A stretch of 45,140 bases of DNA, counting the filler, from Jimgerdemannia flammicorona (taxonomy: Eukaryota): the NCBI GenBank assembly GCA_003990765.1. It is 2 parts of 2 records of this genome, joined end to end, with 100 filler letters (N's around TTAATTAATTAA, not from the genome) between each part and the next. Parts side by side here need not be neighbours in the genome. Positions count along the whole stretch, not along the records: positions 1 to 22,523 come from RBNJ01001256.1; 1 more part is not named here. One strand, 5' to 3'. Numbering within the stretch: the first letter of the stretch is position 1; each line of letters begins with the position of its first letter. A program made the translations under genes and the position numbers. Shown piece after piece: positions 1-42,964 of the stretch. The notes beneath the pieces are model-generated. The model searched no databases. It was not told the origin of the DNA and was given only the letters and a program-made list of their open reading frames with translations.

Positions 1-1444
1 ATATCTCTTAGACTAACTCAAGTTGTTATAAGCAAGTTCTTATTGGAGTGCCTTCCCAAGGTCTTATAGTTCTCAAACTTCTTATCTTTAACTGTCTTGT
101 TATCTCTTAGATTGCTTGCAAGGAAGTATGTGTAAGTGAAACCAGAACTGACTTTATTTCAGAGGAAATAAGAGGGGTATTTATACAAAATACAATTCAA
201 TAGTTACTAAGATATAAAGCAAAATATAAATTCCAATAACTAAAACTACTAAGTTTCAGAGTCGGTACTGATGGTTGTATAGGTTCAGGATGCTGGCATT
301 ATTTAGTGTCATATCAAAATGCCGGTGCTGGAACAATTTTGTGTCATCTCAGAATACTAGTGCTGGCATTATCCAGTGTAACAAAGAACTTAGAGCAGAA
401 AGTTCAGGATCATGGGGGCTTTATCATCATCATCACTAAAGGAGATGAGATCTGTGAATTCATCATGCAGGTCGCGTGTTTCGTATATGTCGCGCAGGAT
501 GACATCATTGCCAATGACGTCATCACATTCGGCTGTGGCGGGGAAATCAGGAACAAGGTCTGGAGCTCTCCAGTCTATGAGGTTCTCTTCTACAAAATAA
601 GAGACAAATGTGGAGTCTTGGGGAGATCTAATCCAGATGCTTGGGCCTTGGAATACTGATATCAATCCTTGCAGGAATTGGTCTGGGTTGTCCTGAAGGA
701 TAGGGTTCCAGAAGTCTTCTACTTCTTCACTGTTGAGGGTGATAGTGGACCGGGCTTCTGTAGCCACCCTGGCTTCTAGTGCATTGATACAGTGAGATGA
801 TAGGTCTCTGAAGTCTGAGACTCTAACATACTCCAAGTTGGGGATCAACCATGGTGCATGCCTGAAGATCTGATAGATCTTCTTAGCTGTCCTTGTTTTG
901 TGTATATCTATGGGAGTGGCATCTTATAGCTCTTGGGTGCTGGCTTGTGGGAACTCCCAGCAGAGGAGGTTTCCTATTTCGTACTCCTGCCATATTTGAA
1001 GGCATTCGGTAGCAATAGTGATTCTTGTTTCCATTTCACAGCGGTAGAGAATGAAGTAATAAGGGTCTGCAGTACCCAGGTTGACACTAGGAGTCCTTCT
1101 TGAGCAGGTTCTCATGGCTCTTCTGATGTCTTGGAACATCCTCTCCTTGACCGAGATACCTTGGTGATTCCTTGACCTTGAGATTTGGCGAGCAGCAGAC
1201 ATTTTATTTGTGGTAAGTCTTTGAGCTATTTTGGGATTGGTGGTTCTTGTTGGTTACTGCTACTGCAGTTCCTTGATCCTTCTTTTATATTCTTCAGGAT
1301 GCTTGTGCTGTGGTCACAATGACTCACAGTTGGTCATCATTGCTCATCTTGTATGCTGTAAGATCTTCTTGTGCTCCGATCTGGTGACTTGTAAGGAAAA
1401 GCTGTCTCTGGTACTGATGTCATCATTCTGGGGTCACCATTATA
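1..1444 (-). repeat. Long LTR of Gypsy family A (third copy, left end cut by the window edge; 5' LTR of another copy or a solo LTR)
   Basis: Colinear with 27734-29283 and 42968-44521. Ends ...GGGTCACCATTATA versus ...CACCATTACA in the 5' LTR. Minus-strand TATAAATA near 178-185 and AATAAA at 153-158. It abuts the pre-RT region of the family B element. Confidence 0.93.
390..1202 (-). pseudogene. LTR-internal ORF ('ORFX'), 270 aa, unknown function, one internal TAA at 924-926
   Basis: ORFs 924..1202 and 390..848 are in the same frame, and the gap reads through without further stops (DATPIDIHKTRTAKKIYQIFRHAPW). The same frame is present in the other two LTRs, and a protein-level homologue lies at ~26470-27230. 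Confidence 0.8.
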
Positions 1445-1639
1445 CTATATTATGATAATAGTATAGAGTCTTTTCTTTGATATTCTTGAAGTCTGTGGCT
1501 AGGATATTCTTGAATTCATAGAGTATCTCTTGAGCTCCTTTTTGAGTGGGAATTTCTCTCCAATAATATAGCTATACTTGTTTATTATTTTCTCCTTTCT
1601 GTAATCTAGTTTGGTGATCTTAGTGCTAGCAAATACTCC

Positions 1640-3280
1640 TCTTCCTATAGATCTGAATTCTTTCTTTCCTCTTTCTGTTTCCTTTAACTTCTTGACTTCT
1701 ATAATCTTTAGCTAAAGAACTGGAAAGATCAACATCTGCACCAATCAGTCCTTCTTCTTAATTGGAAATAGAATTATAGAGTTGTGGTTCCTAGTAATTA
1801 GTAGTATTTCTCTAATATAGTCTGAATCAATTTTTTTTTTTTTTTTTTTTATGAACTCAGAGTTCTGTGGATTTTTATTAGAAGAGAACCTAGTCTATAT
1901 AGGGCAAAACCCTCTCTCACTACCTATTGAGTACTACTCCCCTATTAAATCTAGACTAGCTATTGTTCAGTAGCTTGACCATACTAGATGCAGCAGGGCC
2001 TAATGTGGCCTATACCTCATTCTGTACACCATGCTCTCCCTACTACTAGAGAGAACTCAGCCATATACTAATGATCAAAAATGTATGCCCAAAATCCCAA
2101 TATATATACAAGGCTATGTCTGAGCTAAATAGAATAGCCTCTGCTATCCCAAGTGGAATAAAAGATAAAGAAAAAACCCTCCTTAAAATATAGAATGGTG
2201 GATAGAGCTTAGTTCTCCTAAGCAAGATGAGTAGAGAACTTATATATAAGGCAGGAGGAGACCCTCAATATCCTACTACTCAAGCCTGTAGGCCTCAATC
2301 ATATTGCTATATCAGCTCTCAGTTCTAGTTAAAGATAGCCAAGATATCTGACCTAGATAGCCTCAGATCCTCTAGCTACTTCCAACAACTGGGGCCCAAT
2401 CTCACAAATTACCAAAAGTAGCCAAAAGTGATATCTATTACCTAACTGTCCTATATCAATCAAAAGGCCCCACTAAAGCAACACCTGCTCCAGCTCTGAT
2501 GATTGCCCTCAGCCTAGCATCCTACTGGTCTATCATTATCATTCTTCTACCTATCTGTGATGACCATCTCCTCTCCCATCCTGACTCTATCTAAAAAGCA
2601 GTTATATATGCTAGAACTATACTTGCTGGGAAGCTTACTAAAGCTCAGAGAGCTCTATTATAAGTACTAAGGACCTATAGGTAACCTATACTAGTACTTG
2701 ATATCTAAGGTCAGCCAACTCTATATATAGTCTATAATATATCAGATGATATCTTATTGATAATGGCAAAAGAAAAAAGATGCCATACTAAAATAAGTAT
2801 ACTTTAGATACAGTCAAAGGTATTAGAAACTATAAAAAAGTAAAGAAGATACTGATCTGACACTGATAAAGGGGCAACTCATCACTATTGCCTCCCTTCC
2901 ACTATGTCCTTATAGGTACAACTAACCAACCTAAGATAGAAAAGGTAATAATAGAGAAAAAAAGACTTAGAAGATTGTCTACCAAACTTTGTAACTGGTA
3001 AGGTAATAGAGAAAGGGGTGCTAAATGGCTTATAGTCTGAATCAACAACTTCTCTTTCAATTATAATCTCACTCTTGGCTAGACTACTTCTTATCTTAAA
3101 AATTCTGGTATAGTCTTTTGGAATAGCTATTTCCAGACCAATTATAAGTAAGATAGTTATCTGGAGCTTGAGTATGGTTTCTTTTATTATAGTGATATCT
3201 ATTATAGCTGTATTCTCTGACTTATATTCTGATAGAACTGCATCAGAATAGATCAACTGAATCTTGATCTTGATTTCTTC
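1640..3280 (-). pseudogene. dUTPase domain of family B pol, split by the LINE-like insertion
   Basis: IRSSLAKSEIIIEREVVDSDY (right of the insertion) continues as YIREILLITRNH...D*LVQMLI...ERGKKEFRSIG (left of it). These are decayed dUTPase motifs II-V. Confidence 0.8.
1831..3030 (-). mobile_element. 1.2-kb poly(A)-tailed retroposed insertion, probably a 5'-truncated LINE
   Basis: T20 run at 1831-1850. Exact 15-bp TSD TATAGTCTGAATCAA at 1816-1830 and 3031-3045. Removing it rejoins the dUTPase. I could not recognise a protein motif inside it. Confidence 0.85.
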
Positions 3281-5390
3281 TTTATCATCACTGTTCTTTA
3301 GGAGGGCTGGTGGTTTATCATTCTCTTCTTCCTCCTTTTCTTGTATTGCCTATTTCTCAAGAGCCTTCTGTCTTCTTTTATAATAGATTTTCTTGATTCT
3401 ACTGATATACTGGTAGCAATTATCAATATATTTCATATAGTACATCTTGATTCTATGAGAGTGGACTCCTTATAGTATATATTTTTTAATAATTCTTTTG
3501 TACTATTCTTTTTCACTAATCTATCTGATTTTCTTCTTCTTTTTCTGAGTAGTTATCATATAGACTTCTTCTTACTCACTTTCTTCTTTCTTTATCTCAG
3601 GCAGTACTCCTTTATTGATATTGACGAAAATTCATATCTTTTGATCTCAGTAAATGATCTGTATCTTCTGGGCATTGAGGTCAATTACTGCTCTGGCTTT
3701 ATAAAGTCACTGATTGCTAATGAGGATATTATAGTTAGTAGTATTGGTTATAATCATATCTACTGAGATGGTTGCTCCTCCAAACTTGATAGAAATATCT
3801 TAGATCTTTTCTAGAGGTGTGGCTCTTGTGCCATCTGCTGTGATAAATACCAATTTAGTTGCTTCTTAAACCTCCCAGCCTAGGCAGTCTGCTGCTTTCT
3901 TACTAAGGAGGCATCCTCCTACTCTAGTATCAATGATGGTCTTAAAGATTCTGACTTTAATTTGACAGATTGCATAGATAGAGATCTTGCAATTGTCTTC
4001 ACTTTCTTCTCCAAAGTCTTCTTAAACATTGTTAGCCTTGGTTATCTTCCAACCTTACTCCTTGGTTGTCTTGATAAGTCTATATCTTATTTGCTGTCTG
4101 AATGTAAGAATTTCTACCAGCTGGCCAAAGGCTGCATTGATATTCTATTGGCTAAGATTCTTGAAGATGTCATACTTGAAAGTCTTGGTCTTGTAAAGCT
4201 TTTTCTCTTTTTCTCCTTTACTGGCTGAAGTAGTTTCTCAAATGATATCTTGAATAGTCTATTTCAGTTCTATATCTTGATTCATTTCTTTACCTTGGCT
4301 TTCTGTAGCAGTTTCTATTTATTTTTCCACAGAGTTCTTCTTGGGTCTCTCTGGTGGTCTCTTGTAGAGTTACTTATAGACATTCTTCTTGATAGTCTCA
4401 GTGAAGTAGATTTTTTATTTTTCTTCATCTGATTCTCTAATTTCTTCAAAGGTAATAGTATTGGTCTATTTCTTATTTTGAGTAGCATTGCTTGACTAAA
4501 CCTTGTGCTTGGTTTTACTCATATATTTATATGAATAGTGGCCTTCTTTACAAGTGTAGCAGATATCTCTCTTCTTGTCTAAGGTGGCAGCAAACTTCTG
4601 AACTAGGCAGTGGTCTCTTCTTTTAATTTTCTTTACTATATCTCTAAGATAGGTAGTTATTTTAGTAAACTTTTTAGCAAGTTCCTCTATAGGGTTGCTG
4701 TTTCTCTATTGCTCTGTAGTTTTTGGCTAAGGTGTATTTCAATTGATTACTATGGTAGAAATTACACTAGTTGTCTTGAGTACTTTGATTCTGACTCCAG
4801 TGACTCTTTTCATTGTATAGTCTGTAGATGTCTGGCTATCTAGTATTACTAGATATAGGTGATCTTTTGTACTAGATCTAGGACTACTGGTGATGAGCAG
4901 ATGGCCAGAGCTATCTCTGGGTAGACTCTTTTCATAAATATTGCTTCTACTACTTGATCTCAGATAGCAGCAACATAATCTATAAGAATTATCTAATATC
5001 AGATTCTGGTATAGAATGTATTTAGATTCTTACTTATTTTTTGACATATTATATTGAGCTGATCTTTCAGGGCTTACTTGATCTCATCTATATAGTAGGT
5101 GGTTCAGAGCCAGGCCTTCTGTACTGCTAGTATGGTATCATCATTATTTCCCATATAGATTGCAGTTGTGAATACTGCTCTTATTAGTTCTTAGAGACTA
5201 AAGAACATGAGAGCTACTTGCTGTCTTACTATCAGAGTTCTTATAGCAGTATACTGCTTAAAGATATCAATGAATATAATGATTAATTCATCTAAGATAT
5301 ATCTATAGAATACTAGTAATCTCATATCTATTTTATTTCAGCTTAAAAGTAAGAGATTTGTCTTAAATCACCAGTTAATAGACACCAAGT

Positions 5391-5802
5391 TGTAATATAG
5401 TAGACACATAACTATATAAGTATGTTAGATTTCTGTTTCTTGAAAACTTGATCTTTTTTAACTCTACAGAGTTCTTAGGATATAGAATGGGTGAGTTCAA
5501 AGTATATCTACTTATAGGCTTACTAGTTTTCTTACTTTCTCTTTACTTTGAACTATTTCAATCTGAGGTTTATTCACTCTAGATACTGGGGATATTTATA
5601 CAAGTTTGCTAGCTATAAGGTGACTAAGTTATGACTATATTTTCTATGAGTTATTTTTTACAAGTATAGATTCTCTACATCTATGAAAATTCTATAATTA
5701 TGAAGATTCTATATTTATATTTGTAAAGTTTTTATATTTGTGAAAATATGACTGCTATTTGTAAGGCTATACTATATTTGGTAATTGGATTCAGGTACTA
5801 CA
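5391..5802 (-). repeat. Short (~410 bp) putative 5' LTR of family B
   Basis: Starts TGTAATA directly after the PBS-like CACCAAGT and ends TACTACA. Minus-strand TATAAATA (~5593-5600) followed by AATAAA (~5570-5575). The right boundary is inferred only from TG...CA termini. Confidence 0.6.
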
Positions 5803-6128: not shown

Positions 6129-7302
6129 TATTGGACTAACATGCCCTATTGGCTATTGATAGCCAATGCACATGTAATATTTCCTTTTAATCGTTTATAT
6201 AGTTTATATAGTCCTTTCTTTCTCTTCGCTGCATTTTGGTGTAAAAATGACATGCCATACCGCTGATCTGTGTATCTAGATAGCCCTTAGTTATATCTGA
6301 GCATAAATACTCTGAGGGGGGTTATCGCTCACCATATCCGCTTCACCTTGACTAGCTATCGGTGAGCACAAGCGCACGCCACCATGGTCCAAACAGTTAT
6401 TGGCATCTTCCAACACACACCAAGTAGATTCGGGTATTCTATAATTTTTCCTCATCGAACCGCTTTATGCATGCGACACCGCCTCCTCGTTCTACCGGCG
6501 ATTCATCACCAACAGACGCGCCACGCGGGCATAACAGGAGTCACGCCGTGACTTTTGAGGGTTGGAACAAAAGCTATACAGCATCATTTCAAGGAGCAGC
6601 TCCAGTGGGCAGCGAGCATTGAACGGCGAGCGATCATTGAAGCTGATTATATCAAACAACACATTTGGAGGATTTTGCCTCTGGGTTTTGTTGGATATAG
6701 CTGTCCTTAGAACCTTTGTAAGGGCGACCCATTGGACATATAATGATTTAAGGCAGTGGTGGGCTAGTAATGGCCAATTCTATCTTTCTGAATCCGACTC
6801 AAGCCATCCACAGATCATCGCAGCATGGTGGTGGGGATGCCGCAGGAACAGCAGTTGATGAAGCGGTCCCACAACCACGGAAACTGCACGCTCTATCACA
6901 ACACCCCGCCGGTATGGTGATTGCCAACCATATCCGAGATAACCATCGAAGCGGCTTCGTTGCCCTAATATATTATAAACCTGACGAGGTGTATAAACTA
7001 CATATATGCTCGGGACCAATCTATCTTACATTAACACGCACACCCCGCCAAGGAGGCCCATACCAAGCCGCAGAATCACATCCCCTCAATGTCCTCCCCA
7101 ACCCTGGCGAATATATATATACTACAAACGGCTCGATTCCCACCTCAGCGACGGTACAAGACCAATCTGCCAGACCCTTCTACACGTAATAAAAACCATT
7201 GATTTATTCGCCAGCTCGGCCAACATATACGTGACCGGCGCCCTCCAGCTACCGCATCGTATCGCCAGCTCTGTCCGCACTGTCCCTGCTGGTATACTAA
7301 TT

Positions 7303-8954
7303 CTACTGCGAGTACTGTCCCTGCTGAGGGTACTGTCCCTGCTGCGGGTACTGTCCCTGCTGCGGATACTGCCCTTGCGGATACGGCGAATACTGTCCCT
7401 GTTGTGGGTATTGTCCCTGTTGTGGGTACTGTCCTTGCTGATGTTGCCCCGAGTTAATTTGTCCCTGCGGGGGGTATTGTCCCTGTGGCGTGTATTGGCC
7501 CTGTTGCTGGTATTGGCCCTGTTGCGGGTACTGGCCCTGCTGCGGGAACTGACCCTGCTGCTTGTACTGGCCCTGCTGCGGGTACTGGCCTTGCTGCTGG
7601 AACTGCCCCTGCTGATTCTGATATTGTACGGGTTGCGCGGCAGTGATATTCGGTGACGGGGAGGCGGAGTAAGGAGCGGAGGAAGGAGCGACGCTGGTGG
7701 TGGGCGACGCGGGGTCCTGAAGGTTTGGCTTGTTGACCGTTGGTTCAACGATGTCCGGTTTCTGGAATCCGGCCTCGGACGGATCTGACTTGTAGACCAG
7801 GGACGCTCGGCCGTCGCTGTTTGGCTTGTGCTGCGGGTAGCTGGGTAGCTGGGTGGGAGAGGGAGGAGCGGCGATGGCGGCAGCCTTGACGGCGAGGACC
7901 GGGTCGGGGGTCGGGATCGGAGTCGGGGTTTCGTTCTGCAGGTTGACCGGCGGCTGGTGTGGGTAGGTCGGGGGGGGGCTTCGGGTTTCGTGATCGACGG
8001 CGGGCTGAATGGGAGGTTGCGGTTGCGGCTGTTGTTGATATCCCTCCTGGTTCTGGAAGGATGCTTGTGGCTGAGGGTTGACATGGTGGGGCGGGACCCC
8101 TCCCGCGCCGGGGCCGGCGAAGGCATTGGGGCCGGGCTGGTTGTTGTACTGATACTGTTGCTGCTGCTGGGTGTAGTACGGATCTCCTTGTATGGGTATG
8201 CGTTCGGGGCCGCCGGGACCACCGGGCCCGCCGGGGTTCACGTTGTTGAGCGAGTAGCTAGTTACGGGAGGCGGGAGCGGGGTGGCACGTTTCTTCTGCT
8301 GGGACCTCCGGTAGAAAAGGAAGCCAGCAACAGCGGCGATTAGGACGATGACGCCCGCGACGATGCCGACGATAGTCGGGATCCCGAGCCCACTAGAGGA
8401 AGAGGAATTAGAATTGTAATTGTAATTGTAATTGTAATTAGAGGTGCCGGTCGGGTAGTTGTTGTTGCTAGTGTAGCTGGGAATGTAGTAGTTGCTGGTG
8501 GCGGTCGCGTCCGACAAGTAGGAGGAGAGCAAGGGTTTGTAGTTTTGGCCTATGATCGGCGTGAAATGCCAGTTGGTGCTGGGGTCGACGAGGCCCTTGT
8601 TGCCGAATGTTTGACATTCTTGGAGAGCGATTGTCGTATACTGGCGGGTATAGGGAGTAGTTGTTGCGAGTATTTAGTCATCACGAAAACTGGGGGGTAT
8701 AAGAGGTAGTTGGTACGAGTACGGTCACTTCTTTGTTAAATACTCACGCTCGGCATCCCTGCACAATAGAAGCATAACGCGCAATCGTTTATATATTGTT
8801 GGGTACAGAAGATATCAGCCGACGCTGCACTGCACGCTGCCGAAGCCGTATTACAGCTGGTTTGGCCAGACGCCGGCGCCGGTGCCAGAACGGTGGCAAG
8901 GGTCAAACTCAAGGCGAGGGAGAGCGGCAAAGACGAGCGCATACCGCGAGTCAT
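7303..8954 (-). CDS. Type-I membrane protein (~514 aa): signal peptide, Cys-rich and Ser/Thr/Asn/Tyr-rich ectodomain, one TM helix, Pro/Gln-rich tail ending in QQGQYP repeats. Exons 8954-8748 and 8640-7303
   Basis: Hydrophobic N-terminus (LPLSLALSLTLATVLA). A GTGAGT donor at 8747, TGACTAA branch site and CAG acceptor at 8641 join the two ORFs in frame. TM segment IVGIVAGVIVLIAAVAGFLFY followed by RRSQQKKR. Confidence 0.85.
7306..7612 (-). repeat. Coding 18-bp tandem repeat (QQGQYP hexapeptide, about 15 units)
   Basis: Repeated TACTG(T/G)CCCTGCTGCGGG-type units on the + strand. Confidence 0.95.
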
Positions 8955-10350
8955 TATGGGGGGAGGGAGGGAGGGGGTGAACGAACAAAGCAAAGTCTGT
9001 CGATCTCGGTGGATTATTAAATGAGTGGCTGTTTACTCCAAGTCAAGCCTGCTCCTCGGAAAGAAAGAAAAAGTTTGATTGATCCCGTTCCTCGTCCTAC
9101 ATATTTTTAAACAACCAACATGTGGTAACACCCACATCTGAATTCGTAGCACGTGGTCCTTGACTGCGGCTTGGTGAGAAAGGGGAGGCCCTGCTCCTAA
9201 CCATTTGGGGTTTGTAGTTAGTTGGCAGGCCACATTTATAACTGGAGCCTCCCGACTATTTTAACACATCATCAGTATCGTGATTATCGAAGGACTTTTT
9301 GACCGTCTAGTATTGGTGTTGTACAAGCACGTCACTTTAGGCACATTTTAATTATAACTACGAACATCCCGAATGTTCCGGGTTTCGTTGCTGATCATTG
9401 GTCCTGACTCAACAGGGCAATAGGATCGCCCAAGCCCCAGAAAAATTCGGCCCAGCCGTGAATCTGGTTGCTTAGCCGTGAATTCGATTTGCTCGGCCGT
9501 CGTAATGGTGAGGTCAAATCAAGTGATGCATTGGGACGAGTTTTCTAACAAATATTTTTCTGCTCGGTTCGAAAACATGTATGAGCTGAGATTGTTACTT
9601 TGACAGTGCAGATTTGATGCAAATTTCATATCATACCGCTAAAGTTGCATATACATATAGCAGCAACCGATCTACTTATGCTTTTTTTTTTTACAGCCAC
9701 ATATATAAATATGTTTAATGGAATTCGGCGCATATATAACAAAGTCTTGGAGTACCATTGAGTATATACCTGCGCCATACATCTGTGCACCAAGTATGCC
9801 ATGTACGTGACATGGTTCTGTGATTTAAATTGACAAGGTGCCAAAGTCCATCTTAAGGGGTATTCGAGCAACAAGGTGGAAGCAAGTGCTACCAAACAAA
9901 TATCCTCAGATTATTCAGCTTTCCTCAACTACATCTTCAAGTTATACTCGAGAATTAAATAAAACAATTCTTCAAGGTCAATCAAAAGTACCGAATCCAT
10001 CTTGTTGCCTAAGTCCACTTTGGTGACTTGTCGATTTTTGCGCCGATTCCATTAAGCCAACAAAACTTGCAACATACCAAACAAAGAACGAAATAAAAAA
10101 AATAAAAAAAAACTGGTTCCAAAGTTTATCTAATCCTCGAAGCATTTAGAAAAACTAAAATTGCATCATGCACGCTTTTGTTTCTCAGCCCAGACAAGTT
10201 GTCAGACCTAAAGATGAGGCATGCTTTGAAGCAATGCATATCCTCCAGCATGTTGTGTCTCGTGCCCACACATGAGAATTGAAACTTTATCTTGCGAGCA
10301 CCTCCCTTCTTCTTAACTGTCCTCTTTCATTCCTTCGAAACGCAACCATC

Positions 10351-14788: not shown

Positions 14789-16694
14789 ATGACCTCCACC
14801 AGCCACGCCCTGGAGATCCCGCTAATCCTGACCAACATTTTCACTTATCTCTCCTGCCAATCGCACCTCCTGTCCTGCACCCTCGTCTCGCGCAACTTTT
14901 TCTCTGCCGCGATTCCGATCCTCTGGCGCCGCCCGCGAATCTACAAACCGCGCTTCTTCTCCGCTTTCACCTCCGCCCTGCAACCTTCCACCAACGCACA
15001 TACTCTGCGCTCCTATAGGACGTACGTTCACGAGCTCGATGTCGCTTACCTGATCCGCCAACGTCGCTCAGACCAGCACGCTCTCCTCGTCACCTGCCTC
15101 CCTCTCCTCCCAAACCTCGCTTCCGTCGACCTCCGCGACTGCTCCATTCTCACCGATGATGCACTCGCAATTCTCGCCGAAGCATGCCCGCACCTCAAGA
15201 CCCTCTGGCTCAACATCAACACCGCAATCACAACACAGGGCGCAATCGATTCCATCCCGCGCTTTGCAAAACTCAGAACACTTCACGTCGACGGCGCGCC
15301 CTGGTGCACGGACGAATTCATTGAATGCATCTTTGGGTCGTGTCGCCTTCTACGTGCGCTCAATATTACGGGATGCAGGCGCGTCACGGGAGATTCCCTA
15401 CGTCTCGTCCGTTCTACCCAGCTGCGATCCCTCGTCCTAAGACAGGTCGGATGCATGACCCGCGAGCAGGTCGCCGAGATCATGGCCTGCCGTACGCTCG
15501 AGGAGGTTGAGCTCGTCGTCGAGGGCGACTGGGATCTTTGGGCACTGATAGAAGACCCAAGCCCACCACCAGAAAGTGATGCGATCTCAGAGCTCTCAGA
15601 CTCCAGCCTCCGTGTTCGCACCATTTCCGCCGTCTCATCCCGCCGCACCCTTCGCAAGCTCTCTCTCAACCTTGCCAAAGGTGCACGCGAATCATCCCTC
15701 GTTGCGTTACTCGACCGCCTCGGTAGCAGTGATGCCTTGGTAGACCTAAACCTGCACCTCTGGCGCCCGAGCGAGACGACCGCAACACTTGACGGCATCG
15801 CCTCGCACTGTCACGCCCTTCGACGACTTCGACTCGAGAGATGGGACGGTGACTGCACTGGAAATGAAGCGCTACGTCGGATTCTTGAGTCATGTTCGAA
15901 GATCGAAGTTCTACACCTGTGCGAGTCGTCGTTTACAGACGGAGGTTTGGAAGCCGTGGTGGAGGTGTGCGGCGGGAGGTTGCGCGAGTTGACGATCGAG
16001 GACGTGCTGGTCACGGACGCGGGCGTCGCGAGGGTTGTGAGGGAGTGCACCGGGCTGAGAGCGTTGGTGGTCAAGTATTGTCAGGTGACCGATGCACCAT
16101 TGAGGGAGTTGAAGGCGTGCGGGAGCGGGATGAAGAGGCTGTCGTTTGAGTGTGAGAGCGTTGGCGAAGAGGCGTGGAGAAGCGTGTGTGAAGGATGCCC
16201 CCAGTTGGAGTTTTTGGAGCTGTGGACTATCGCAGAGGTGCCGAAAGAGGTATGTTTGGTGTCGAACCTTTGATTGCATCTCTCCTCATCTCTCACGCTA
16301 ACATTTCATTTTCTCCACCCCCACGCAGCACCTCCACCTTATCGCTCACCTCCGCCACCTCGAAACCCTAATCTGCTACGGCCTTGGCGCCCTCCCCGAA
16401 GCAATTCTGCTTCTCCTGGCACGATGGCTCCCCTCGCTGCGCGACCTCATCGTGCAGAAGAGCACGCGCTGGGACGAGTGGCTAGGCCCGTGGCTTAACA
16501 GCGGCGAGGTTCAGCGGCATCAACCCACGATGCTCAGCATTGGCCTTCAGTACCAGGAGTGGGTCCGGCGCGAAGAGGGCATTCATGTCGAGTTTGAGGG
16601 CAACATCGCGGGTGGGGTCGGGCCGTACGTCAGGGAGGAGGTCATTAGGGGCATGCCGTTGTGTACAGTGTTGTCAATGTATTCGAGAAGTTAA
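14789..16694 (+). CDS. F-box/leucine-rich-repeat (RNI-like) protein, ~608 aa. Exons 14789-16249 and 16329-16694
   Basis: N-terminal F-box-like LEIPLILTNIFTYL...LLSCTLVSRNFFSAAIPILWR and repeated LxxLxLxxCxxxTD units. An intron GTATGT...GCTAAC...CAG joins ORF 14738..16273 to ORF 16452..16694 in frame. Confidence 0.9.
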
Positions 16695-16721
16695 AGGGGG
16701 GGGGAGAAGAGAATGGAGGTA

Positions 16722-21769: not shown

Positions 21770-22053
21770 ATACTGGGTAGCGTATATAGATTGAAAGTGA
21801 TGCCAGAGGGACGGTGTGGTAAATGGAGGGATGAAAGGTGGATGGGTCCGTCGATGGGTGCGTGGTTGTGTAGTGTTTCATTTTCGGGGTCATATTTCTT
21901 TTCTTCTCTTTTTTCCGGTATTTCTCAACCGGCGTACCAATGTAACCGACATAGTCTATTGTATCGCGTTATGGTTGTATTTTGCACCATCGCTTCTCGT
22001 TTGAAATCCAGTTCCTCGTGTATGATATTAAACCTGTATTTTTTTTTTTTTTT

Positions 22054-22523
22054 GCTCGTCCTCAACCACTTGCATGATATATCTTCAGCTTCGATAGTGT
22101 CATAAGATATCGTAGAATTACTCCGCATTTTTATCCGTCGCATTTGGCACGCGCTTGCGAGGCCTAAGCATCATGGCGAGTCCTGGATTCGGCGGAAGGA
22201 GATCCGAACTCCATATGGCCGATTACCAAGCAAACCAAACCGGGAGATTGGAAGATTCAACTCAGAAGACCCGATTTTTTGTGGTTTAAAATCGTTTATG
22301 TATATATGATACAGCGCGAGAAGGGAGTAGAGCAGAGCGATATGCGCGCAAAAAGTTCGGCTGCAACGTAAAGTTGAAAAACTGGCCTTTTTTTTTTTTT
22401 TTTTTTTTTTTGCTCGTCCTCAACCACTTGCATGATATATCTTCAGCTTCGATAGTGTCATAAGATATCGTAGAATTACTCCGCATTTTTATCCGTCGCA
22501 TTTGGCACGCGCTTGCGAGGCCT
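22054..22523. repeat. Exact 112-bp direct duplication (22054-22165 and 22412-22523), each copy preceded by poly-T
   Basis: The sequences are identical. The second copy abuts the gap, so it may be an assembly artefact. Confidence 0.9.
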
Positions 22524-22623
22524 NNNNNNNNNNNNNNNNNNNNNNNNNNNNNNNNNNNNNNNNNNNNTTAATTAATTAANNNNNNNNNNNNNNNNNNNNN
22601 NNNNNNNNNNNNNNNNNNNNNNN
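22524..22623. other. Artificial 100-nt contig spacer (Ns with a TTAATTAATTAA six-frame stop linker)
   Basis: N44 + TTAATTAATTAA (22568-22579) + N44. Confidence 0.97.
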
Positions 22624-25052
22624 TTATAGTCACTTGGACTTCCACTTTATTACCAATTACTAATCTATAGATATAGTTACAGTACCTCCTCCCACTACCC
22701 AATCCCCCTAGAGGGGCTCTCCTCTAACTCATCATACTTGAAAGCCATTCTATCCTCTACTACTCTAACTCTCCTCTTACTCTGCTCATAGATTTTCTCT
22801 ATCAAACTATACTGCTAATCACTCTATAGTCTCTAACCAAGTTACCAGTCTATCAAGATGTCCTCCATTAACTCTTTCTATCTCAGCAATTGCACCCTCA
22901 GTCCTAGACTCCTTCCATTCTCAAAAACAAATAACCAGTGATCTGCCAACCTCATCTATATAGTCAAAACCCACTCTAAAGTGAGCCACTCCTTTCTAAC
23001 TCTCTCTATCAATCTATCCTGCAAATTCTCCCATTAGCCTCTCACACCATCTCTCCTATATACTACTCCTAATTGAAACTTAACTACCAATCAGAAATTG
23101 CCCAGCACCTTACACTCTCTTAGCCAATGTTCAGACATCTATATAAAATTCCCTTCTTGCTCTATATTATAATACTCTTCACAGTCAAAACTTCCCCCCT
23201 CTACCAGATAGTCTGAGTGAAAGGAGTATAATATTTCTCTACAACATATACCACCAGACTACCTAGTACTTTAGTGGCAACTACTACCTGATCTCAGCAC
23301 TCTAGGCCCAGACTCTATTCTAGTCTCACTCCTCCCTAATATCTATCTGCTGCTACCCACTAGGCCATAAATTCTGTCCTAACCCTCTCTGATACTTGAC
23401 CCCATTACTAATATTGAAGTTGATTAATAAGATGCTCCTCAATAGTACATAGTCCTATCTCTATATTATGGGGCCCCAAGGCAACTCTCCTTCATTTCCC
23501 CACTATTGAATTCTAATACAATATACCCCATCTATAACTCTCTATCAGAAACTCTTATATTGCATGTGCCCATTGTTCTGAAGCCTGACTAAGGACAGTA
23601 GATTGCCTGTAGAGCCTCTTAGTATAGACTTCATCTTCCAAACCCTTTTCATCAGGAGAACCCAGCCACTGTCTCTCAGCTCTACCACTCTCTTCAGCCA
23701 CCATGCTCACAGACAGTATAGCCTCTTCATAAAATCAACTAGTCCAAGTTCTTCCCTAGCAACTGATAAAGACAAGATTTCCCAGCTAATCTCCTCCCAG
23801 CCCAGATCTACCCCTTAGCTAGTTTTAATAATCTCTTTACCACCCAAGCTGGGAAGTCCAAATGATAGACTAAGTACTATAGCTTTGGTAGCCAGTAGAT
23901 ATTCAAGATAGAAATCTGCTCTACTAGAGATATATGGCAGTCACTCCAACCCTGCAGAGCCTTCTCCCAGATTGTAACTCACTGTTCTCACTAAGCTCTC
24001 AGTAAGACTGATCTATACACTGAGAGATAAATATCTAAGTATTGCACTACCTCTCCAGCTGAGACAATTGTTCCAATAACATCTCCCCCCACTAGACCAT
24101 TACCTAATACTATTGTCTCATACTTGTGTCAATTGAGTTTGGCCCCAGAATATACCTTATACTACTCCACCATTACCTTGAGTTCTTCAACATTAGTGAT
24201 TAATTTCAGACCAACTACCATATCATCAGCAAAGGCTCTAATCTTTTATTCTATATCTAATACTGAGAGCTCCACTATTTTCTGCCTAATCCTATTCCAT
24301 CAATGGCTCCAATGAGAGTATATACAGAATAGAGACAATAGGTTCCCTTAGAGAACCCCCCTACCTAGAGAGAAGACTCCCTCTCAGTGATCATTACACA
24401 TAAGCACAGCTCTACTCCCTTTCAGTAGGCTGATCATCACTACTCAGAATTACTGAGGAACACTAATCCTATCTAGGACCTTCACCATTTAAACCCACCA
24501 GACATGGTCATATGCCTTCTCTTGATCAAGAAAAACCAGATGTCCATTTAGTCCACAGGTATATATCCCCTCAATAATACCATACACCCAAGCTGTGCTA
24601 TCCCTAATGAGCCAGTCTCCTACAAAACCCTACTGCTCCTCCCCCAAGACCTGCTAGACCACCTTCTGCAACCTTACTACTACTAACTTAGTAACCAACT
24701 TTCTGTCTATATCTAGCAGCATGATCAGCCTCCAGTTCCTCCAGTTCTCTCTCCTGTCTTTATTTTTATAGAGCAGTGCCACCAGTTTCAGATCCTGCTC
24801 ACCCACCCAACTATCTGACCATAGTACTAAGTTACACATTGCTATCAGCTCTCCCATTATATTGAGAATTCCCACCATCTTCTTCTAAAAGTCCCAGAGT
24901 AGACCATCCTCTCCTGGTACCATGCCCAATATAGTTGTAGTAAGAACTTAGTAAATTTCTTTCTCTTATACTGGTAATATCAGACTGTCCAGCCCTTTTA
25001 TTAGTAGTAAGTATCAATCCTCCAAAGTCTGATTAATAGTAGCACTATCAGC
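22624..25052 (-). mobile_element. 5'-truncated, degenerate L1/Tx1-like LINE (RT region to 3' end)
   Basis: Minus-strand NWRLIMLLDIDRKLVTK, FLDQEKAYD and AFADDMVVG. Its 3' end TTATAGTCACTTGGACT matches 37524 onward. The poly(A) tail probably falls in the gap. Confidence 0.88.
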
Positions 25053-25597
25053 TCAGTATCTTTTACTGTTACAAGTAGAATAATTGGGACAAGTACCTAG
25101 CCTATACTGAGTTTGTCTACAATAATAGCCAGCAAATCTCTACAAAGAAGACTCCATTCTTTCTGAACCATGGTCAATACTTAAGGACCCCAAGCACTAC
25201 TATAAAATTAGCAGTCTCAGTATCTCAAGATTGGTTGAGATCATTTCTGACCTTATCTGAATGATAAGAGATACTCTCATAGAAGTACAGGACTACTCAA
25301 GTACATGAACTTAAAGCAAAGGAAAGTCTCTTATGATATTGGTGATATAGTTATACTTAGAACAGATTACTTCTACTCAGATACTCTGGTATAACAATTA
25401 GTCAAGAAACTCTATACTAGAAGAATTGGACTATACAAGATTGTGGAAAAAGTCAGTAAAGTCAACTATAAGTTACCACTTTCCTACAATATTTGAGTAC
25501 ACCTAGTATTCCATATTAGTCAACTGGTGGACTACTATGAGAACTTATTCTTTAAGTATATAGTTTTACTACCACTTCTAATTAGGATCAATGATTA

Positions 25598-25745
25598 TAA
25601 GAAATTCGAAATCAAAAAAGTACTTGACCACAAGGTCTACAAATATTCTAAAACAGTCAAGCAGTTTTTCCTCATCAAGTAGAAGAGTTACTCTACCCAT
25701 GACACTATTTGTGAAAAAGAAAAAGCTTAAGAGAATATATGTAAA
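25598..25745 (+). pseudogene. Integrase C-terminal chromodomain remnant
   Basis: KFEIKKVLDHKVYKYSKTVKQFFLIK*KSYSTHDT matches the chromodomain pattern (Y/F)EVEKILDH...YLVKWKGY. Confidence 0.75.
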
Positions 25746-26469
25746 GCCCTCTAGGACTATATGGAAATACTTACTCTCCAGCAAAGAAAGAAACTGTAGC
25801 TCTAAGACTTAGAGTATATAGTAATGAAAAAAGGCATCATATATTTATCTGGAATATATAATACCAAACATTAACAGAAAAAAAGGAATATAATATCTAA
25901 TCAACAAGAAAGATACTTAAGCAAAGAATAATTCAGCATAGTATAGTAAAATATATTTGAATAACTCCATTTTATACCATCTGTTTCATCTCTACTAGAT
26001 GATAATGGATACTTTATATAGAACTTAGGAAAGCTGATAATGTCAAAACCAATCTAAGTCCATTTATATAACAGATATTATTATTAGAAATTGTCTCAGA
26101 TTATAAGAAATACTATTTCTGAGAGATTTGAACTCCTAGCCATAACAATGAGAGCTCTTGCTCTAGATAAGAATGGTCAGTCCTTGCAAATATACCAGCC
26201 AGACAAAAAAAAAGAGAATCAAGATCTATCAACTCTGTATAACCACAACTATAAGTAGTGATATCTTTGAAATTAGGATTTTCTCATGTGATCAGTACAT
26301 GCCTTGCTTATAGTAACAGATCATACATTCTGCTAGAAAGCATGATCATATCAAGGTTATATCAGACTAGTGAATAAGTATAAATATCCAAGATAAGAAT
26401 ATACTACAACTCTTATCTCTCTCTCTCTATAAAGAAAAGACAAGATAAGAATACCTACTACCTGCCACC

Positions 26470-27230
26470 AAACTGTCTACTATAGCTAGCCCCTCTCAAG
26501 CCAGGTTGATCACCTCTTTGGATATATTCAGGTTACTATCCAAGAAAGGAACCACCACTCTGAGGCCCTTAATCTCTCTAGCCAGAACCTAGAACAGTAT
26601 GTTCTTGACTGCTGTAAATTCATCAAAAGGGCCTACCTTGCTACCAGTTGCCTAGAGATCTGACATGAATATGAAATTGGTCACCAACTCTCTAATGTAC
26701 AAAAGATTGGACTAACCTAGACAGACATAAGCAAAGACTAGCTAAGAAGATCTATCAAATTATATACCATATATTTTTTACAATCTCCAATCTCAACTAT
26801 GTATAACTGAAGGATTTCCAGAACCTCTTCTTCCCCAAGGTTGATGAGCTAGAGATCAAGGTAGCCCAAGAAGTCAACTCCTGGATTACCCTCAAGTTTA
26901 CTAATATTGAACTCCACTGGAGCCCCTTTTTGAATAATAATCCAGACCAATGGCTCTAGGACCTCTCTGATCTCTTTAAAGGACTATCTATCCAAATGGA
27001 TATCTCTAGACATAAGAATTAAGAACTCTATTTGAATGGTTCCAACCATATTAGATGAAGAATCTCTACACTAATATCTATTCCAATTAAGAACTATTTG
27101 CAGACCTCATTGACTTCTCTATCCTAGACACTGAGCCATCAGTAACTATCCCCCTTACTACTGAAGGAGAAGACAACATTACTGAGAAAGATTCTCTACC
27201 TTTTTCTCTCCTGGTTCTCAATTTCTGAAT
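26470..27230 (+). pseudogene. Diverged homologue of the LTR-internal ORFX (stops and at least one frameshift near 26730)
   Basis: LATSCLEI*HEYEIGHQL, AKKIYQII...ISNLNYV*LKDFQNL, LEIKVAQEVNSWITL, HWSPFLNNNPDQWL*DLSDLFKGLSI and DLIDFS align in order with ORFX. The ends are approximate. Confidence 0.8.
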
Positions 27231-27263
27231 TAACAAGAATATTTATTTTTAAGGAGGAAAATA

Positions 27264-27733
27264 TATAATAGAACAAACAGACAAGCAAACAGATGAGCAA
27301 ACAGATAAGATACAACAAGTGATTACATGACCCAGTAATGATGTAATATGATTGAGCATGATATATAATATTATGAACAACAGATATAATAGATGATATG
27401 TATGAATGATGTAAAAAATGATATCTAGTTTATCTCCAACAATCAGTACCATAGCAACTATTACCACAGCAGCTGATTATTACCTAGTAATTGAGATTCT
27501 GATCACAAAGTGTTTTTTTGTTACAAACTACCTGATAAAGGTTATAATCACAAACCTTACTATAGTTATCAAATTAGTCACTCATACTTAGTCAGAAATC
27601 ATAGACTAACTTATATAAATACCCCCCAGTTTCCATTCAAAATAAAGCAGTTTTAGTTCAGTTCTTGATATACATAAGAATCAAGTCTCCTCCACACATA
27701 CACATTTTCTTGAGTCTTAGTAATGATATCTAA
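27264..27733 (+). repeat. Putative 3' LTR of family C, interrupted at CTAA by the family A element and probably resuming at 44522
   Basis: Follows the PPT. Contains TATAAATACCCCCC (~27614) and AATAAAGCAGTT (~27641), a module resembling that of the family A LTR. The far end was not determined. Confidence 0.55.
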
Positions 27734-29283: not shown

Positions 29284-29293
29284 TCTTCCTCCT
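29284..29293 (-). other. Polypurine tract
   Basis: Minus-strand AGGAGGAAGA immediately before the TGTAAT of the 3' LTR. Confidence 0.85.
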
Positions 29294-35318: not shown

Positions 35319-35489
35319 ATCAATCAGTTGATAGTTTGAACTCCTCTGACTTTAAAAGTCTCACAGATGAGTAGTTGCCAGTGCTATATTCCTTAGAGAA
35401 TGGTTCAGACAGATAGCCTACTGGTCACAAGATATGCTGTTACAATTCATGGACTAGAACCTTGCAGGCAGTCATTATATTTTGCTTCT

Positions 35490-39552
<4,063 letters not shown>

Positions 39553-42500
39553 AGAGGCCATGCTTCTTGAGCTTCTTGAGGGCTAGCTGTATATGATTGA
39601 TATGTTCCCATACAGTATTGCTGAAGATGATCACATCATCAACATAGACAAAGAGCTATTTTCCAATCTCATTGCTGAAGACTCTGTTCATCATTTGCTG
39701 AAAACTTGCTAGGGTATTATACATTCCAAATGGCATTCACAGGTAGATATAGGTGGCATCAGGTGTGATGAAGGCTGATTTCTCACTGGTATCTTGAGTG
39801 AGATCAATCTGATGGAAGTCTAAGAACAGATCCAAGGTGGTGTAGTATTTGGCTTTGCTTCCAAGGGTGGTAAGAATTTCTTAAATATTTGGTAAGGGCT
39901 GTCTATCCTTCTTGGTAATGGCATTGAGTTTCCTATAGTCAATGCAGAGTCTTGGTGCAAATTCTCCAGGCTTGCTTCCTTTCTTCGAGACAAGGACAAT
40001 GGGTGAGGTCCAGGGGCTGATAGCTTGCTTGATAATTCTGGCTTCTTCCATTTTCTTGAGTTCTGCTCACAGCCACTCTCTGTAGGCAGGTGGTATCGGT
40101 CTGGCTTTCTGGTAGATGGGCTTGGTATCACCAGTATTAACTTCATAATAGTACTTGAGTTCTTGATTGTGAATATCCCTAAAGTCTGTAGCAAGTACTC
40201 CTTCATTCTGATGTAGGATCTTTAAAAGTTATTCCTCTAGGGGAAAGTTTTCTCCAATGGTATATATGTGCTTGTTCTGGTCCTTGTCTTTCTTGTGTTC
40301 AAGTTCGGTAATCTTAGTGGTAGTATAGGCTCCTCTTCCAGTAGATCTAAAGTCTTGTTCTCCTCTCTTGGTCTTGATGAGTTTGATGGCTTCAATGATC
40401 TTAGGTTTCTTGATTTCATGGATCAGCATCTGGCCAATCCTGTCATGCTTCTTGACTTTGAAGGGGGTGGTGTAGTTGTGATTTCTGACTATGAGGAAGA
40501 TCTCGCCAGTATAATCTGGGTCAATTACTCCTCCTTCAACTGAGATTTCGCTTTTGGCCAGACTGCTCCTGGTCTTGATAATTCCAGTATAGTTCTCTGA
40601 CAGCTTGACTCCAATTCCAGTACAAAGTAGGGTGGTGGTCTGTGGTTTGAGGGTAGCATCTTGAATGCTGGCAAGGTCTATTTCTATAGCTTCTTCAGTC
40701 TTGTATTCTGGGATCTTGGCTTTGGGGTGAAACTTCTTGACCTTGAGGGTGATGTCTGATTCTTATTCCTCCTCATTATCGCTGTCAGCTTGGAGCTCTG
40801 GGGGCTGGTCATCTTCTTCAGCTTTCCTTTTTGCTTCAGCAGCTTCTTGCTCATATTTCTGTTGGCAGATTTTCCTGACCTCACTGATACAGGACCAGCA
40901 GTCATTCAGGTATTCTGAGTAGTATATCCTAGTACCATGAGAGCATCTTCCTTGAGGGGCATAGCCATTGATGATCTTATTATACCACTGCTCATCTGTG
41001 AGCTTGGGTGCCTTGTTCTTGTTCTTGTTCTTATTCACTGAGTGCATGAAGACCTCTGTGTCCTCTTCATCTCCTTCCTCCATGTCTGGTAGAACTCCTT
41101 TGTAGATATTGATAAAGACTCATACCTTTTTTCCTCTATAGTTGATCTGCATCTTCTGGGCATTGAGATCAATAATGGCCTTGGCCTTGTGAAGCCATTG
41201 GTTGCCAATGAGGATGTCATAGTTGGTGGTACTTATAACAATCACATTAACTAGGATAGTAGCTCCTCCTATCTTGATGGAGACTTCTCAGATTTTGCCA
41301 TGGAGAGTAGCTTGTATACCATCTGCTGTGATATAGACCATCTTGGTGGACTCTTCAATGTTCCAACCTAGGTAGTCAATTGCCTTCTTGCTCATGAGGC
41401 ATCCTCCAGCACCAGTATCAATGATGGCATCAAAGATACAGTCTTCGATCTGACAGGGTGTATAGGCTGATGTCTTGCACTGGTCTTTGGATTCTTCACC
41501 TGAGTTCTCAGATTCTTCCTATACATTGTGAGCTTCTACAATCTTGTACTCTTGATTCTTGATGATAGTTATAAGTCCTACTCTTAACTGCTGTCTGAAG
41601 GCAGGAACTTCAGCTAGTTGTCCAAAAGTAGCATTGACCTTCTGTTTCTTAAGGTTCTTATAGATATCATACTGGTGGATCTTAGTCTTGTACAGCTTCT
41701 ATTCCTTCTTGCTTTCACTTTCTCCTGAGACTGGAGTAGTGCCTTCAATGATTTGGCAGATAGCTTCATCTAACTCCATATCTTGATCAATCTCCTCTGG
41801 TTGAGTCTTGCTTTGAATAGTGATAGCTGGGGTCTTCTTTGGTCTTCCAACTGGCTTGCTGTTGCTCTTCTTATCATAGGGCTTGGACTGGGTTCTGGTA
41901 CCTTCAGTAGCAGAGTAGAATTCAAGCTCCTCATAGTATTCTTCATCATCAGTATCACCAATCTCCTTGATGACTACTGTATTGGTTTGTTCTCTGGTTC
42001 TGCTAGTATTGCTTGGTTGGGCTTTGTATCTTGTTTCAGTCATGCAACTCTTTGTATAGTGGCCTTCTTCTCCACATCTGAAGTATGTGATATTGCATTC
42101 TTCTGTAGCGGCTGCAAATCTCTACACTGGTCTCCTGTTGGCACTTCAGACTTCTCTAACAACATCACCAAGGTGTACAGTCATCTCAGTGAACTGCTTG
42201 GTGAGTTCTTCCACTGGGTCAGCTTTGGCTATCTTGGGGGTAGGTGGGGTTGGTTGTCTGTTTACAACTGTGGTGGATATGATACTAGTTGGCTTTGATG
42301 GCTCCATCTTGATGCCAGTTATTTTTTCCATTGAGTATTTGGCAGGGTGTCTGGCAGTCCAATATCTCTGTACAAAGATCACTTTCTAATCAAGGGTCAG
42401 TGCAGCTAGGGTAGACTGGATTGCTAGGGCAATTTTAGGGTGAACTCTTTTGAGGAAAGTTGAATCTACTATTTGTTCCTTGAGGCAGTCATCATAGCCA

Positions 42501-42911
42501 GCCAAGACAATCTGGTGACAGATTCAGATATAGAATGAGTTGGGATCTTCACTAAGTCCATGGCAGATAGTATTGAGTTGATCTTTGAGAGCTTGCTTGA
42601 TCTCTTTGGTATAATATGTTGTTCTGAGAAAGACCTTCATGTTGGCAAGTTTGGCTACACCAGCATCAGCAATAGTGGCTGCATTGAACTTGTCTCTGGC
42701 AGATTCTCTGAGGCTGACTGGTAGAAGGGCCAATTGAGTATCTACACCAAGGGCTCATATGGCAGCAAATTGTTCAAAGTCTTCAATGAAGATCAGAATT
42801 GACTCTTTAGTAATATATCTATAGAATGTGAGGGGGCACATTTCTATCTTGTCTTGAATTCTTGCAGGGGTGACTCTTGTAGTCAGGGTAGTTGTTGTGG
42901 AGGTTGTTCAT
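39553..42911 (-). pseudogene. Family A gag and 5' pol (gag, CCHC knuckle, protease, dUTPase, RT to YVDD)
   Basis: ATG at 42911, YFRCGEEGHYTKSC (~42043-42087), AIIDTGAGG (~41403-41428) and LFVYVDDVIIFS (~39622-39657). Stops and frameshifts are present. Confidence 0.9.
40337..40760 (-). pseudogene. dUTPase domain between protease and RT
   Basis: IDL...TGIGVKL...KTRSSLAK...GGVIDPDYTGEI...DRIGQML...RGEQDFRSTG corresponds to trimeric dUTPase motifs I-V (motifs I and V decayed). Confidence 0.92.
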
Positions 42912-42947
42912 TTTTCAGCTTGAAAGTGAGGGATTTGTCTTAAATCA

Positions 42948-42964
42948 CCAGCCAATGGGCACCA
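42948..42964 (-). other. Primer-binding site
   Basis: Minus-strand TGGTGCCCATTGGCTGG starting 3 nt after the 5' LTR. The priming tRNA was not assigned. Confidence 0.75.

Follow-up and report, generated by a model that had tools for sequence, protein, structure and literature searches.

Can a long terminal repeat (LTR) of a fungal Ty3/Gypsy retrotransposon hold a protein-coding gene of its own? The question is raised by a 45,140-nt stretch of the genome of Jimgerdemannia flammicorona (assembly GCA_003990765.1; referred to here as the window, with all coordinates given as positions along the whole stretch), in which a first-pass annotation had noticed one sense-strand frame in each of three long LTRs. 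The frame is indeed present in all three, at 390-1202 (copy 1), 28214-29041 (copy 2) and 43452-44279 (copy 3) on the minus strand, just where it had been placed, and with 813-828 nt of ~1,550 it occupies 53% of the repeat, so that the description of it as filling over half of the LTR was accurate. The other features of the window that are discussed below are collected in Table 1. A bias of change towards third codon positions, indels of whole codons and the existence of relatives together uphold the proposal that this open reading frame (ORF), termed here the LTR-ORF, is a genuine, selected accessory gene lying in sense within a fungal Gypsy LTR, and we consider it very probable that the gene is real.

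The case for coding had originally been built on insertions and deletions (indels), and these bear it out: the five that separate the ORFs of copies 1 and 3 are all whole codons (+4, +1, -8, -1, -1; that is 12, 3, 24, 3 and 3 nt), whilst those in the remainder of the LTR measure 35, 4, 2, 1 and 1 nt, the largest being a single unit of a tandem repeat. Multiples of three thus account for 5/5 indels within the ORF and 0/5 outside it (Fisher two-sided p=0.008). A second line of evidence comes from the fact that copy 3 is the 5' LTR and copy 2 the 3' LTR of a single minus-strand insertion; they were identical at insertion, and therefore changes that are private to either represent neutral decay. 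These private changes fall about evenly on codon positions 1, 2 and 3 (19, 21 and 16 in copy 2; 10, 7 and 17 in copy 3), in contrast to the differences fixed between copy 1 on the one side and the ancestor of the other two on the other, which include change that took place in transposing lineages and number 18, 8 and 45 (chi-square p=1.9e-7). Mutation bias does not explain the contrast, because nearly all changes in both classes are transitions; for the same reason Nei-Gojobori ratios (0.16-0.25 for comparisons between lineages, 0.45 for the LTR pair of the single insertion) were set aside in favour of the comparison of codon positions.

The three ~1.55-kb repeats are true LTRs of a Ty3/Gypsy element. 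In the full element the LTRs begin with TGTAAT and finish with GTGACA (TG..CA), and the target site, the 4 bp CTAA, is duplicated on the two flanks of the insertion (27730-27733 and 44522-44525). A sequence resembling a primer-binding site (PBS), TGGTGCCCATTGG, lies at 42952-64 just past the 5' LTR, and a polypurine tract, AGGAGGAAGA, at 29284-29293 adjoins the 3' LTR. Between them the minus strand carries, in this order, gag, protease (PR), dUTPase, reverse transcriptase (RT) and RNase H; no integrase was detected in this full element, the 3' part of which is interrupted by another RT-bearing fragment. That fragment is on the opposite strand and fills the 3' interior from ~29.9 to 35.5 kb, with RVT_1 fragments at 33175-33677 (+), and the spacing of 15.2 kb between the LTRs is due to the presence of this inverted retroelement fragment inside the Gypsy interior. 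The LTR of copy 1 shares 83% and 82% identity with the other two across ~1.5 kb, and it belongs to a deleted relative of which gag/PR remnants (3582-4201) and a PBS remnant (5336-5403) are found upstream on the same strand.

Within the LTR the ORF runs from position 243 to ~1070 of ~1,554 nt, giving ~271 codons which in every copy of this type (hereafter A-type) start with ATG and end in ...ILNFLL-TAA. It stops ~200 nt short of a module of TATA box and AATAAA (at about LTR 1317-1349), which is followed by ~190 nt of unique 5' region (U5). The 242 nt that precede the ORF are the best-conserved stretch of the LTR, and LTR positions 156 and 243 are occupied in 3/3 copies by a TATAAAAG box and by the ATG, respectively. 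Tandem repeats of 35 nt, missed by Tandem Repeats Finder and seen in a second repeat search, number four units in copies 2 and 3 (43319-43458 in copy 3). The ORF is repeated together with the LTR, once at either end of the element, and its start is 242 nt inside the LTR boundary, beyond the polypurine tract; this location rules out an additional internal ORF of the kind that lies between LTRs, whether ahead of gag or between pol and the 3' LTR. A stop-free frame on the antisense strand (240-659, 28091-28498 and 43329-43736, +) was rejected as a by-product, there being no early start codon in copy 1.

Relatives of the LTR-ORF protein exist in sequence databases, and they define a small family of ~20 members in four subgroups with identities of 27-89%. 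Five proteins were found in the first search at E<=0.01 and five at E<=0.001 in a HMMER pass over 1.84 billion representatives (lowest identity 33%), whilst a profile search gave 13 relatives, with a few more from their clusters. The window type, of 271 residues, represents subgroup A, and P0003 is likewise of 271 residues, open throughout and 72% identical to the window type; subgroup B comprises P0007 and P0022, subgroup C is represented by P0009 (342 residues) and subgroup D contains P0011, P0017, P0019 and P0021 (325-331 residues). P0009, P0011, P0017 and P0021 are open over 324-342 residues. All five sequences with a complete N-terminus share a start of the type MPxxR..QTS, and variants of the motifs W(Q/H)(E/D)YEI, AKK.HQ.FRH.P, NP(I/L)LQDNPDQ(F/W)LQ and F(Q/E)GP.I recur across the four subgroups. 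The relatives are all unnamed or called "hypothetical protein" and come from short contigs.

Nothing found in these searches connects the family to a known one. Among the 1.84 billion representatives there was no cellular or named homologue, and the first-pass statement that no gag, pol or env motif could be recognised was extended to Pfam and to PDB sequences: at E<=1 nine members gave only ATG5_HBR in Pfam (2/9, best E 0.088, which is at chance level), and no PDB sequence matched at E<=10. The same Pfam and PDB sequence searches did not place the protein in the Sag or Nef families. It is not Gag either, as a gag frame of its own, with the remnant of a zinc knuckle, is found elsewhere in the element. 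When the window was searched in six frames with the family proteins, matches were obtained at LTR copies only. Among 8000 candidates there were no longer or fused forms (weak evidence), and scans of viral contigs and genome contigs for DNA of the family found none; one metagenome locus, L001 (35% over 78 residues), was discarded as spurious, with contig neighbours that look unrelated. In P0006 the C-terminal 45 residues resemble the antisense translation just past the stop of the ORF (+ frame 272-439), which suggests a palindromic or chimeric contig.

The window itself holds a fourth copy, which belongs to subgroup B and is heavily decayed: the ATG has become ATA, and the frame is broken by two frameshifts and numerous stops. 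Still legible in it are the motifs WHEYEIGH, AKKI.Q, NLNYV, NPDQWL, ADLIDFS and LVLNF-stop. It lies ~900 nt downstream of an integrase domain of the SH3_Tf2-1 type on the same strand, and by its position this single B-type copy of the window would also sit in an LTR. The layout is alike in the two types, an ORF followed by a spacer and a TATA/AATAAA module, with proteins that are only ~45% identical, and from this fourth copy the arrangement of a gene within the LTR appears to be ancestral. The A-type element was inserted into the U5 of the B-type element.

All three A-type copies share an in-frame TAA at codon 93, after ...QEL, and it had been cautioned that this could be either a C-to-T hit, recurrent or ancestral, or the boundary between two ORFs. 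The former part of the caveat stands, as the position is Gln in P0002, P0003, P0004 and P0013 and is CAA in transcript contigs, so that the TAA is derived; the latter does not, since constraint is present on either side of the TAA and there is accordingly one ORF, not two. The bias towards third positions is seen in the 92 codons before the TAA (8, 2 and 20 fixed differences at the three positions, p=2e-4) and in the core after it (4, 4 and 15, p=5e-3), and is weaker in the tail (6, 2 and 10). The contigs come from two runs, X1 and X2, which are called transcript assemblies of the same organism solely because they lack host introns: those at 8641-8747 and 16248-16326 are spliced at GT..AG, and one contig of 2,173 nt is identical to a host gene with zero differences. 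On the ORF region the contigs cover 573-841, 929-1204, 732-1081 and 733-1136; uncovered stretches and contig depths were not counted as evidence. At window position 926 they read A>G (hence CAA) with a word depth of 835/835 in X2 and 14/21.7 in X1, and because the contigs of both runs read CAA there, family members with an open codon 93 are transcribed. The 23 best-supported variants within the ORF include 12 at third and 2 at second positions; Y49H, stop93Q, Y110H, L119S, C138R, I191V and S197P restore the family residue, whereas R5C and R54C lead away from it.

How the stop came to be shared may be understood from the way the copies have decayed. Besides the common TAA there are no further internal stops in copy 1, four in copy 2 and three in copy 3. 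Across the LTR, 36 of the 81 changes private to copy 2 and 33 of the 65 private to copy 3 are C-to-T in CpA context, and the observed/expected ratio of CpG in the three LTR copies is 0.07-0.28. The copies decayed after insertion through hits resembling repeat-induced point mutation (RIP), a pattern that CAA to TAA fits. At 18 sites of the ORF copies 1 and 3 have T or A where copy 2 has kept C or G, and at least 10 of these are protein-changing sites at which copy 2 has the family residue; a recurrent TAA is plausible because parallel hits are this frequent. With regard to the longer history, the gene was in all probability kept intact by purifying selection whilst the elements transposed; all four window copies are now dead.

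The predicted protein has three parts. The first ~70 residues, judged on complete sequences, have a basic character in subgroups A and D (net charge +7 and +4; isoelectric point (pI) 11.5 and 9.9), and they are followed by a conserved core of ~145 residues and, in each subgroup, by a strongly acidic tail with a net charge of -15 to -26 and a pI of 4.1. The tail, which is probably disordered according to the models, carries short hydrophobic motifs such as DLISF(E/S)D, DLIIFED, DLINFS, DLITFS, VPIFEEE, DDWPLF and (I/V)LNF. It had been noted that there is no transmembrane segment, and in agreement with this no window of 19 residues exceeds 1.09 on the Kyte-Doolittle scale. AlphaFold2 models from alignments of 9 and 17 rows are mostly helical with a disordered tail, and have a mean confidence (pLDDT) of 47.5 and 42.6. 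A comparison of the first model with 48,161 PDB representatives gave a best Z of 3.9 and none of Z>=5, so that no fold is assignable, and in the ESM Atlas the best feature score was 0.83 with TM<=0.33, which is at chance level.

What might such a gene do, and how would it be expressed? The explanation that we prefer overall, with the chances that it is right or wrong about equal, is that of a selected LTR gene with its own transcription unit, the product of which is a nuclear trans-acting regulator. Each LTR would then be a small transcription unit consisting of the TATAAAAG box, the ORF and the AATAAA of the LTR itself, and a short mRNA running from after TATAAAAG to that AATAAA would be the simplest route to translation, as six or seven ATGs within the opening 130 nt of the LTR lie upstream of TATAAAAG and in copy 1 no ATG separates this box from the start codon. 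Read from the arrangement of these signals, a transcript internal to the LTR is a tentative proposal that falls somewhat short of an even chance. The encoded protein would act in trans in the nucleus, as a regulator or an adaptor for the element, for example a transactivator with an acidic activation tail that acts on the LTR promoter with its 35-nt repeats. A transactivator is proposed because the layout of charges matches that of many activators and because the 35-nt repeats would be a natural target; taken by itself, a transactivator-like function is nevertheless doubtful. An anti-silencing role, which the first-pass annotation had offered as one possibility, is an equally tentative reading. 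Owing to its location in the LTR, the gene occurs in two copies in each element and is retained by solo LTRs. It may even be that in this clade of fungal chromovirus-like elements every LTR is a self-contained gene, complete with promoter, ORF and poly(A) signal, encoding a trans-activator like Tas or Tax or an antagonist of silencing, that solo LTRs across the genome remain coding and supply this factor in trans, and that the choice between the upstream promoter of the gene and the downstream promoter of the genomic RNA switches transposition, and this wider model we consider unlikely.

A number of observations weigh against parts of the preferred explanation. An LTR location has been seen for the two window types only, the relatives being known as proteins. 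Transcript cover of the ORF does not show a separate mRNA, because any full-length RNA of the element contains the unique 3' region (U3), and the X1 and X2 contigs give no start, end or strand of an RNA. TATA-like strings are frequent in AT-rich DNA, and in copies 2 and 3 the start codon is preceded, 5 nt upstream, by an ATG in another frame. The regulator reading draws on the charge pattern and short motifs alone, basic N-termini are confined to two of the four subgroups, those of B and C being about neutral, the low pLDDT makes the helical core no more than a weak prediction, and a reading of the same motifs as clathrin boxes, SUMO-interaction motifs or export signals is equally open. Finally, the protein tree joins copy 1 with copies 2 and 3 (86/97), which fits an ancestral TAA and would clash with selection acting later, a grouping that parallel hits may have misled.

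If the gene is real it could still be expressed in other ways. It may be translated, in the manner of sag and nef, from a spliced subgenomic RNA which joins the 5' leader to an acceptor just before the ATG in the 3' LTR, with no promoter inside the LTR; the ORF shares with those two genes a location at the 3' end of the genomic RNA, and as the six or seven upstream ATGs would block translation of an unspliced RNA, some shortened RNA would be needed. However, no joint between leader and LTR was seen in contigs over the 20 kb compared, which is weak evidence as contigs easily miss such RNAs, and the joints that do occur in the LTR (239->387, 461->559 and 1036->1111) are without GT..AG and match differences in copy number or indels, and we judge such splicing to be improbable. 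Somewhat less probable again is that transcription of the element starts after the first TATA (LTR 156), giving a long R region, so that the gene would be the 5'-proximal cistron and would be made also from RNAs that end at the AATAAA of the 5' LTR. The invariance of TATAAAAG in the three copies would suit this, as would the low level of fixed differences in the 242 nt before the ATG (2-5%, against 3-18% in the ORF), but the second TATA, 27 nt before AATAAA and after the 35-nt repeats, has the look of a classical U3 promoter and enhancer, and the word depth in X2 of 5178 in U5 against 835 in the ORF is the opposite of what is predicted, although this is a hint only.

Other possibilities would deny the gene itself, or its unity. 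The frame could be one that is open in U3 by chance or as a relic, or else a recently captured fragment of a host gene, conserved only by recent common descent or by cis-regulatory constraint, and it is true that all four window copies are broken, that the family is tiny and named only "hypothetical protein" and that no confident fold was obtained. We consider this very unlikely: there is a third-position bias between lineages that is absent from the changes after insertion, the indels are of whole codons, frames of 271-342 codons have stayed open at 30-45% identity with start, motifs and tail in common, and no cellular homologue appeared among the 1.84 billion representatives. That the TAA divides the region into a 92-residue peptide and a downstream protein is least probable of all and close to negligible: the stop is in 3/3 A-type copies of the window, in copies 2 and 3 a Met comes 5 codons past it and some database entries begin there (P0005), yet full-length relatives read Gln in one frame, the transcript contigs read CAA, and copy 1 is without a Met after the stop until its last 8 codons.

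Table 1. Features of the window that relate to the LTR-ORF, its carrier element and the divergent fourth copy
Feature	Position	Strand	Remarks
LTR copy 1 (3' LTR of deleted relative)	1..1444	-	final ~50 nt beyond window start
LTR-ORF, copy 1	390..1202	-	270 codons + stop; single internal stop; least decayed
In-frame TAA, codon 93	924..926 (copy 1)	-	after ...QEL; present in all three A-type copies
TATAAAAG box, candidate promoter of LTR gene	1282..1289	-	87 nt before ATG
Tandem 35-nt repeats, candidate enhancer of genomic promoter	291..395	-	3 units in copy 1, straight after stop codon
LTR module	153..185	-	TATAAATA 178-185, AATAAA 153-158; AATAAA 27 nt after TATA
LTR copy 2 (3' LTR, full element)	29283->27734	-	ORF 28214-29041, 5 internal stops
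LTR copy 3 (5' LTR, full element)	44521->42968	-	ORF 43452-44279, 4 internal stops
Element coding interior	36981..42958	-	Pfam domains and gag frame
gag frame with zinc-knuckle remnant	41500-42958	-	8 stops/486 codons vs 25 and 39 in other frames
Protease	41288-41518	-	Pfam
dUTPase	40229-40762	-	Pfam; between PR and RT
RT	38904-39494	-	Pfam
RNase H	36981-37379	-	Pfam
Integrase C-terminal SH3 domain, Tf2-1 type	25341..25535	+	PF24626, E 7.9e-12, 45.6 bits (cut-off 30)
Subgroup-B copy, heavily decayed	26451..27228	+	tblastn with P0007, P0022 and P0009, E 1e-35 to 5e-52
B-type module	27612..27646	+	TATATAAATA 27612-27621, AATAAA 27641-27646; ~385 nt after B ORF

Several further features of the window concern the elements and their surroundings. 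The inverted fragment at 29900-35500 is ~70% similar to 22911-24911 (inverted), which in turn is ~67% similar to the RT region of the full element itself (38001-39553), and a strong GC skew at 29900-35500 tracks the sense strand of its RT sequences; long C-rich frames on the minus strand at 29.4-32.9 kb are antisense to this fragment and have no Pfam match. In the copy 1 element (1445-5403) only ~3.9 kb of interior is left, similarity to the full element is 70% in its gag/PR remnant as against 83% in the LTRs, and of its 5' LTR only the last ~13 nt, together with the PBS, are kept at 5336-5403. The older plus-strand Gypsy element (25341-27733 and 44522-45140), with its integrase SH3 domain, a weak chromodomain match and the B-type LTR, is split in U5. 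Fungal host genes in the window include a chitin-synthase-like GT2 and a Zn2Cys6 protein; the contigs define canonical introns in the host genes at 6965-9221 (-; intron 8641-8747) and 14793-16700 (+; intron 16248-16326), the latter intron lying at the 3' end of an F-box/LRR gene. A perfect direct repeat of 127 nt (22039-22165 and 22397-22523) next to undetermined bases (~22523-22567, where an ORF is a run of X) is probably an assembly gap with duplicated edges.

Open reading frames in or overlapping U3 are familiar from retroviruses, where they include sag of mouse mammary tumour virus (MMTV), nef of human immunodeficiency virus (HIV) and bel2/bet of foamy viruses. The sag gene of MMTV is a superantigen ORF in the U3 of the LTR and encodes a type II membrane glycoprotein of a vertebrate retrovirus. 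The LTR-ORF is like it in being a sense ORF of ~300 codons that lies wholly inside a long (>1.2 kb) LTR, ahead of the promoter/poly(A) module, and so occurs in each of the two LTRs; it is unlike it in that its protein has no transmembrane segment and no match to Sag, and in that the host is a fungus without adaptive immunity. Its position upstream of TATA/AATAAA is that of the Sag/Nef type, in what is presumed to be U3. The tas/bel1 and bel2/bet genes of foamy viruses and nef of HIV and simian immunodeficiency virus (SIV) are likewise 3' accessory genes which reach into U3. Tas, a protein of ~300 residues, acts in the nucleus as a transactivator and contains an acidic activation region, and its layout of charges resembles that of the LTR-ORF protein, both being products of 3' accessory genes that overlap the LTR. 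The foamy virus and HIV genes, however, start internally and only overlap U3, whereas the LTR-ORF is entirely within the LTR (243-1070 of ~1,554), and there is no sequence similarity.

Amongst fungal Ty3/Gypsy elements the gene that invites comparison is brtn, which going by the title of a paper from 2011 by Zhao et al. is said to be antisense. It is described as an additional ORF of BcGypsy1 (Boty-like) from Botrytis cinerea that is missing from current annotation (10.1101/2021.04.13.439636). On that description brtn and the LTR-ORF are both extra genes of unknown function outside the standard annotation of a fungal Ty3/Gypsy element; the LTR-ORF, for its part, is in sense and within the LTR, where the description does not place brtn. 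An "add. ORF" of unknown function in fungal chromoviruses appears in the legend to a figure of element structure in Novikova et al. 2010 (PMC2864245), and the description given there does not place it inside the LTR. The same source reports for PosPlaTy3-5 of Postia placenta a dUTPase between PR and RT (PMC2864245), which is the order found in the window element. Lineage-specific extra ORFs between the LTRs have been described elsewhere, as with ORF1 of Ogre, the env-like ORF of Athila and ORF3 of bdelloid elements (PMC6431247, PMC5408684); the paper on rotifer ORF3 has no wording for an ORF within or overlapping an LTR, and a search of open-access literature for a retrotransposon ORF within or encoded in an LTR returned nothing relevant. 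We rate the LTR-ORF protein as the founder of a new orphan protein family, in a position that is new for Ty3/Gypsy elements.

Since gene calling is preceded by masking of the LTRs, which pass for non-coding control regions, a conserved gene embedded in an LTR is invisible to standard annotation. A gene in this position is duplicated in each element and left behind in solo LTRs, which bears on dosage, on trans-complementation and on the domestication of transposon proteins. The parallel RIP-like hits seen here can furthermore mislead trees of decayed transposon copies. As an orphan family the LTR-ORF proteins offer a route to study how fungal transposons contend with host control through RIP, methylation and RNA silencing, and the gene provides an independent, non-animal parallel to the LTR-embedded accessory genes of complex retroviruses. 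If the wider model of self-contained LTR genes acting in trans were true, there would be "complex retrotransposons" which, like complex retroviruses, have evolved independently in fungi.

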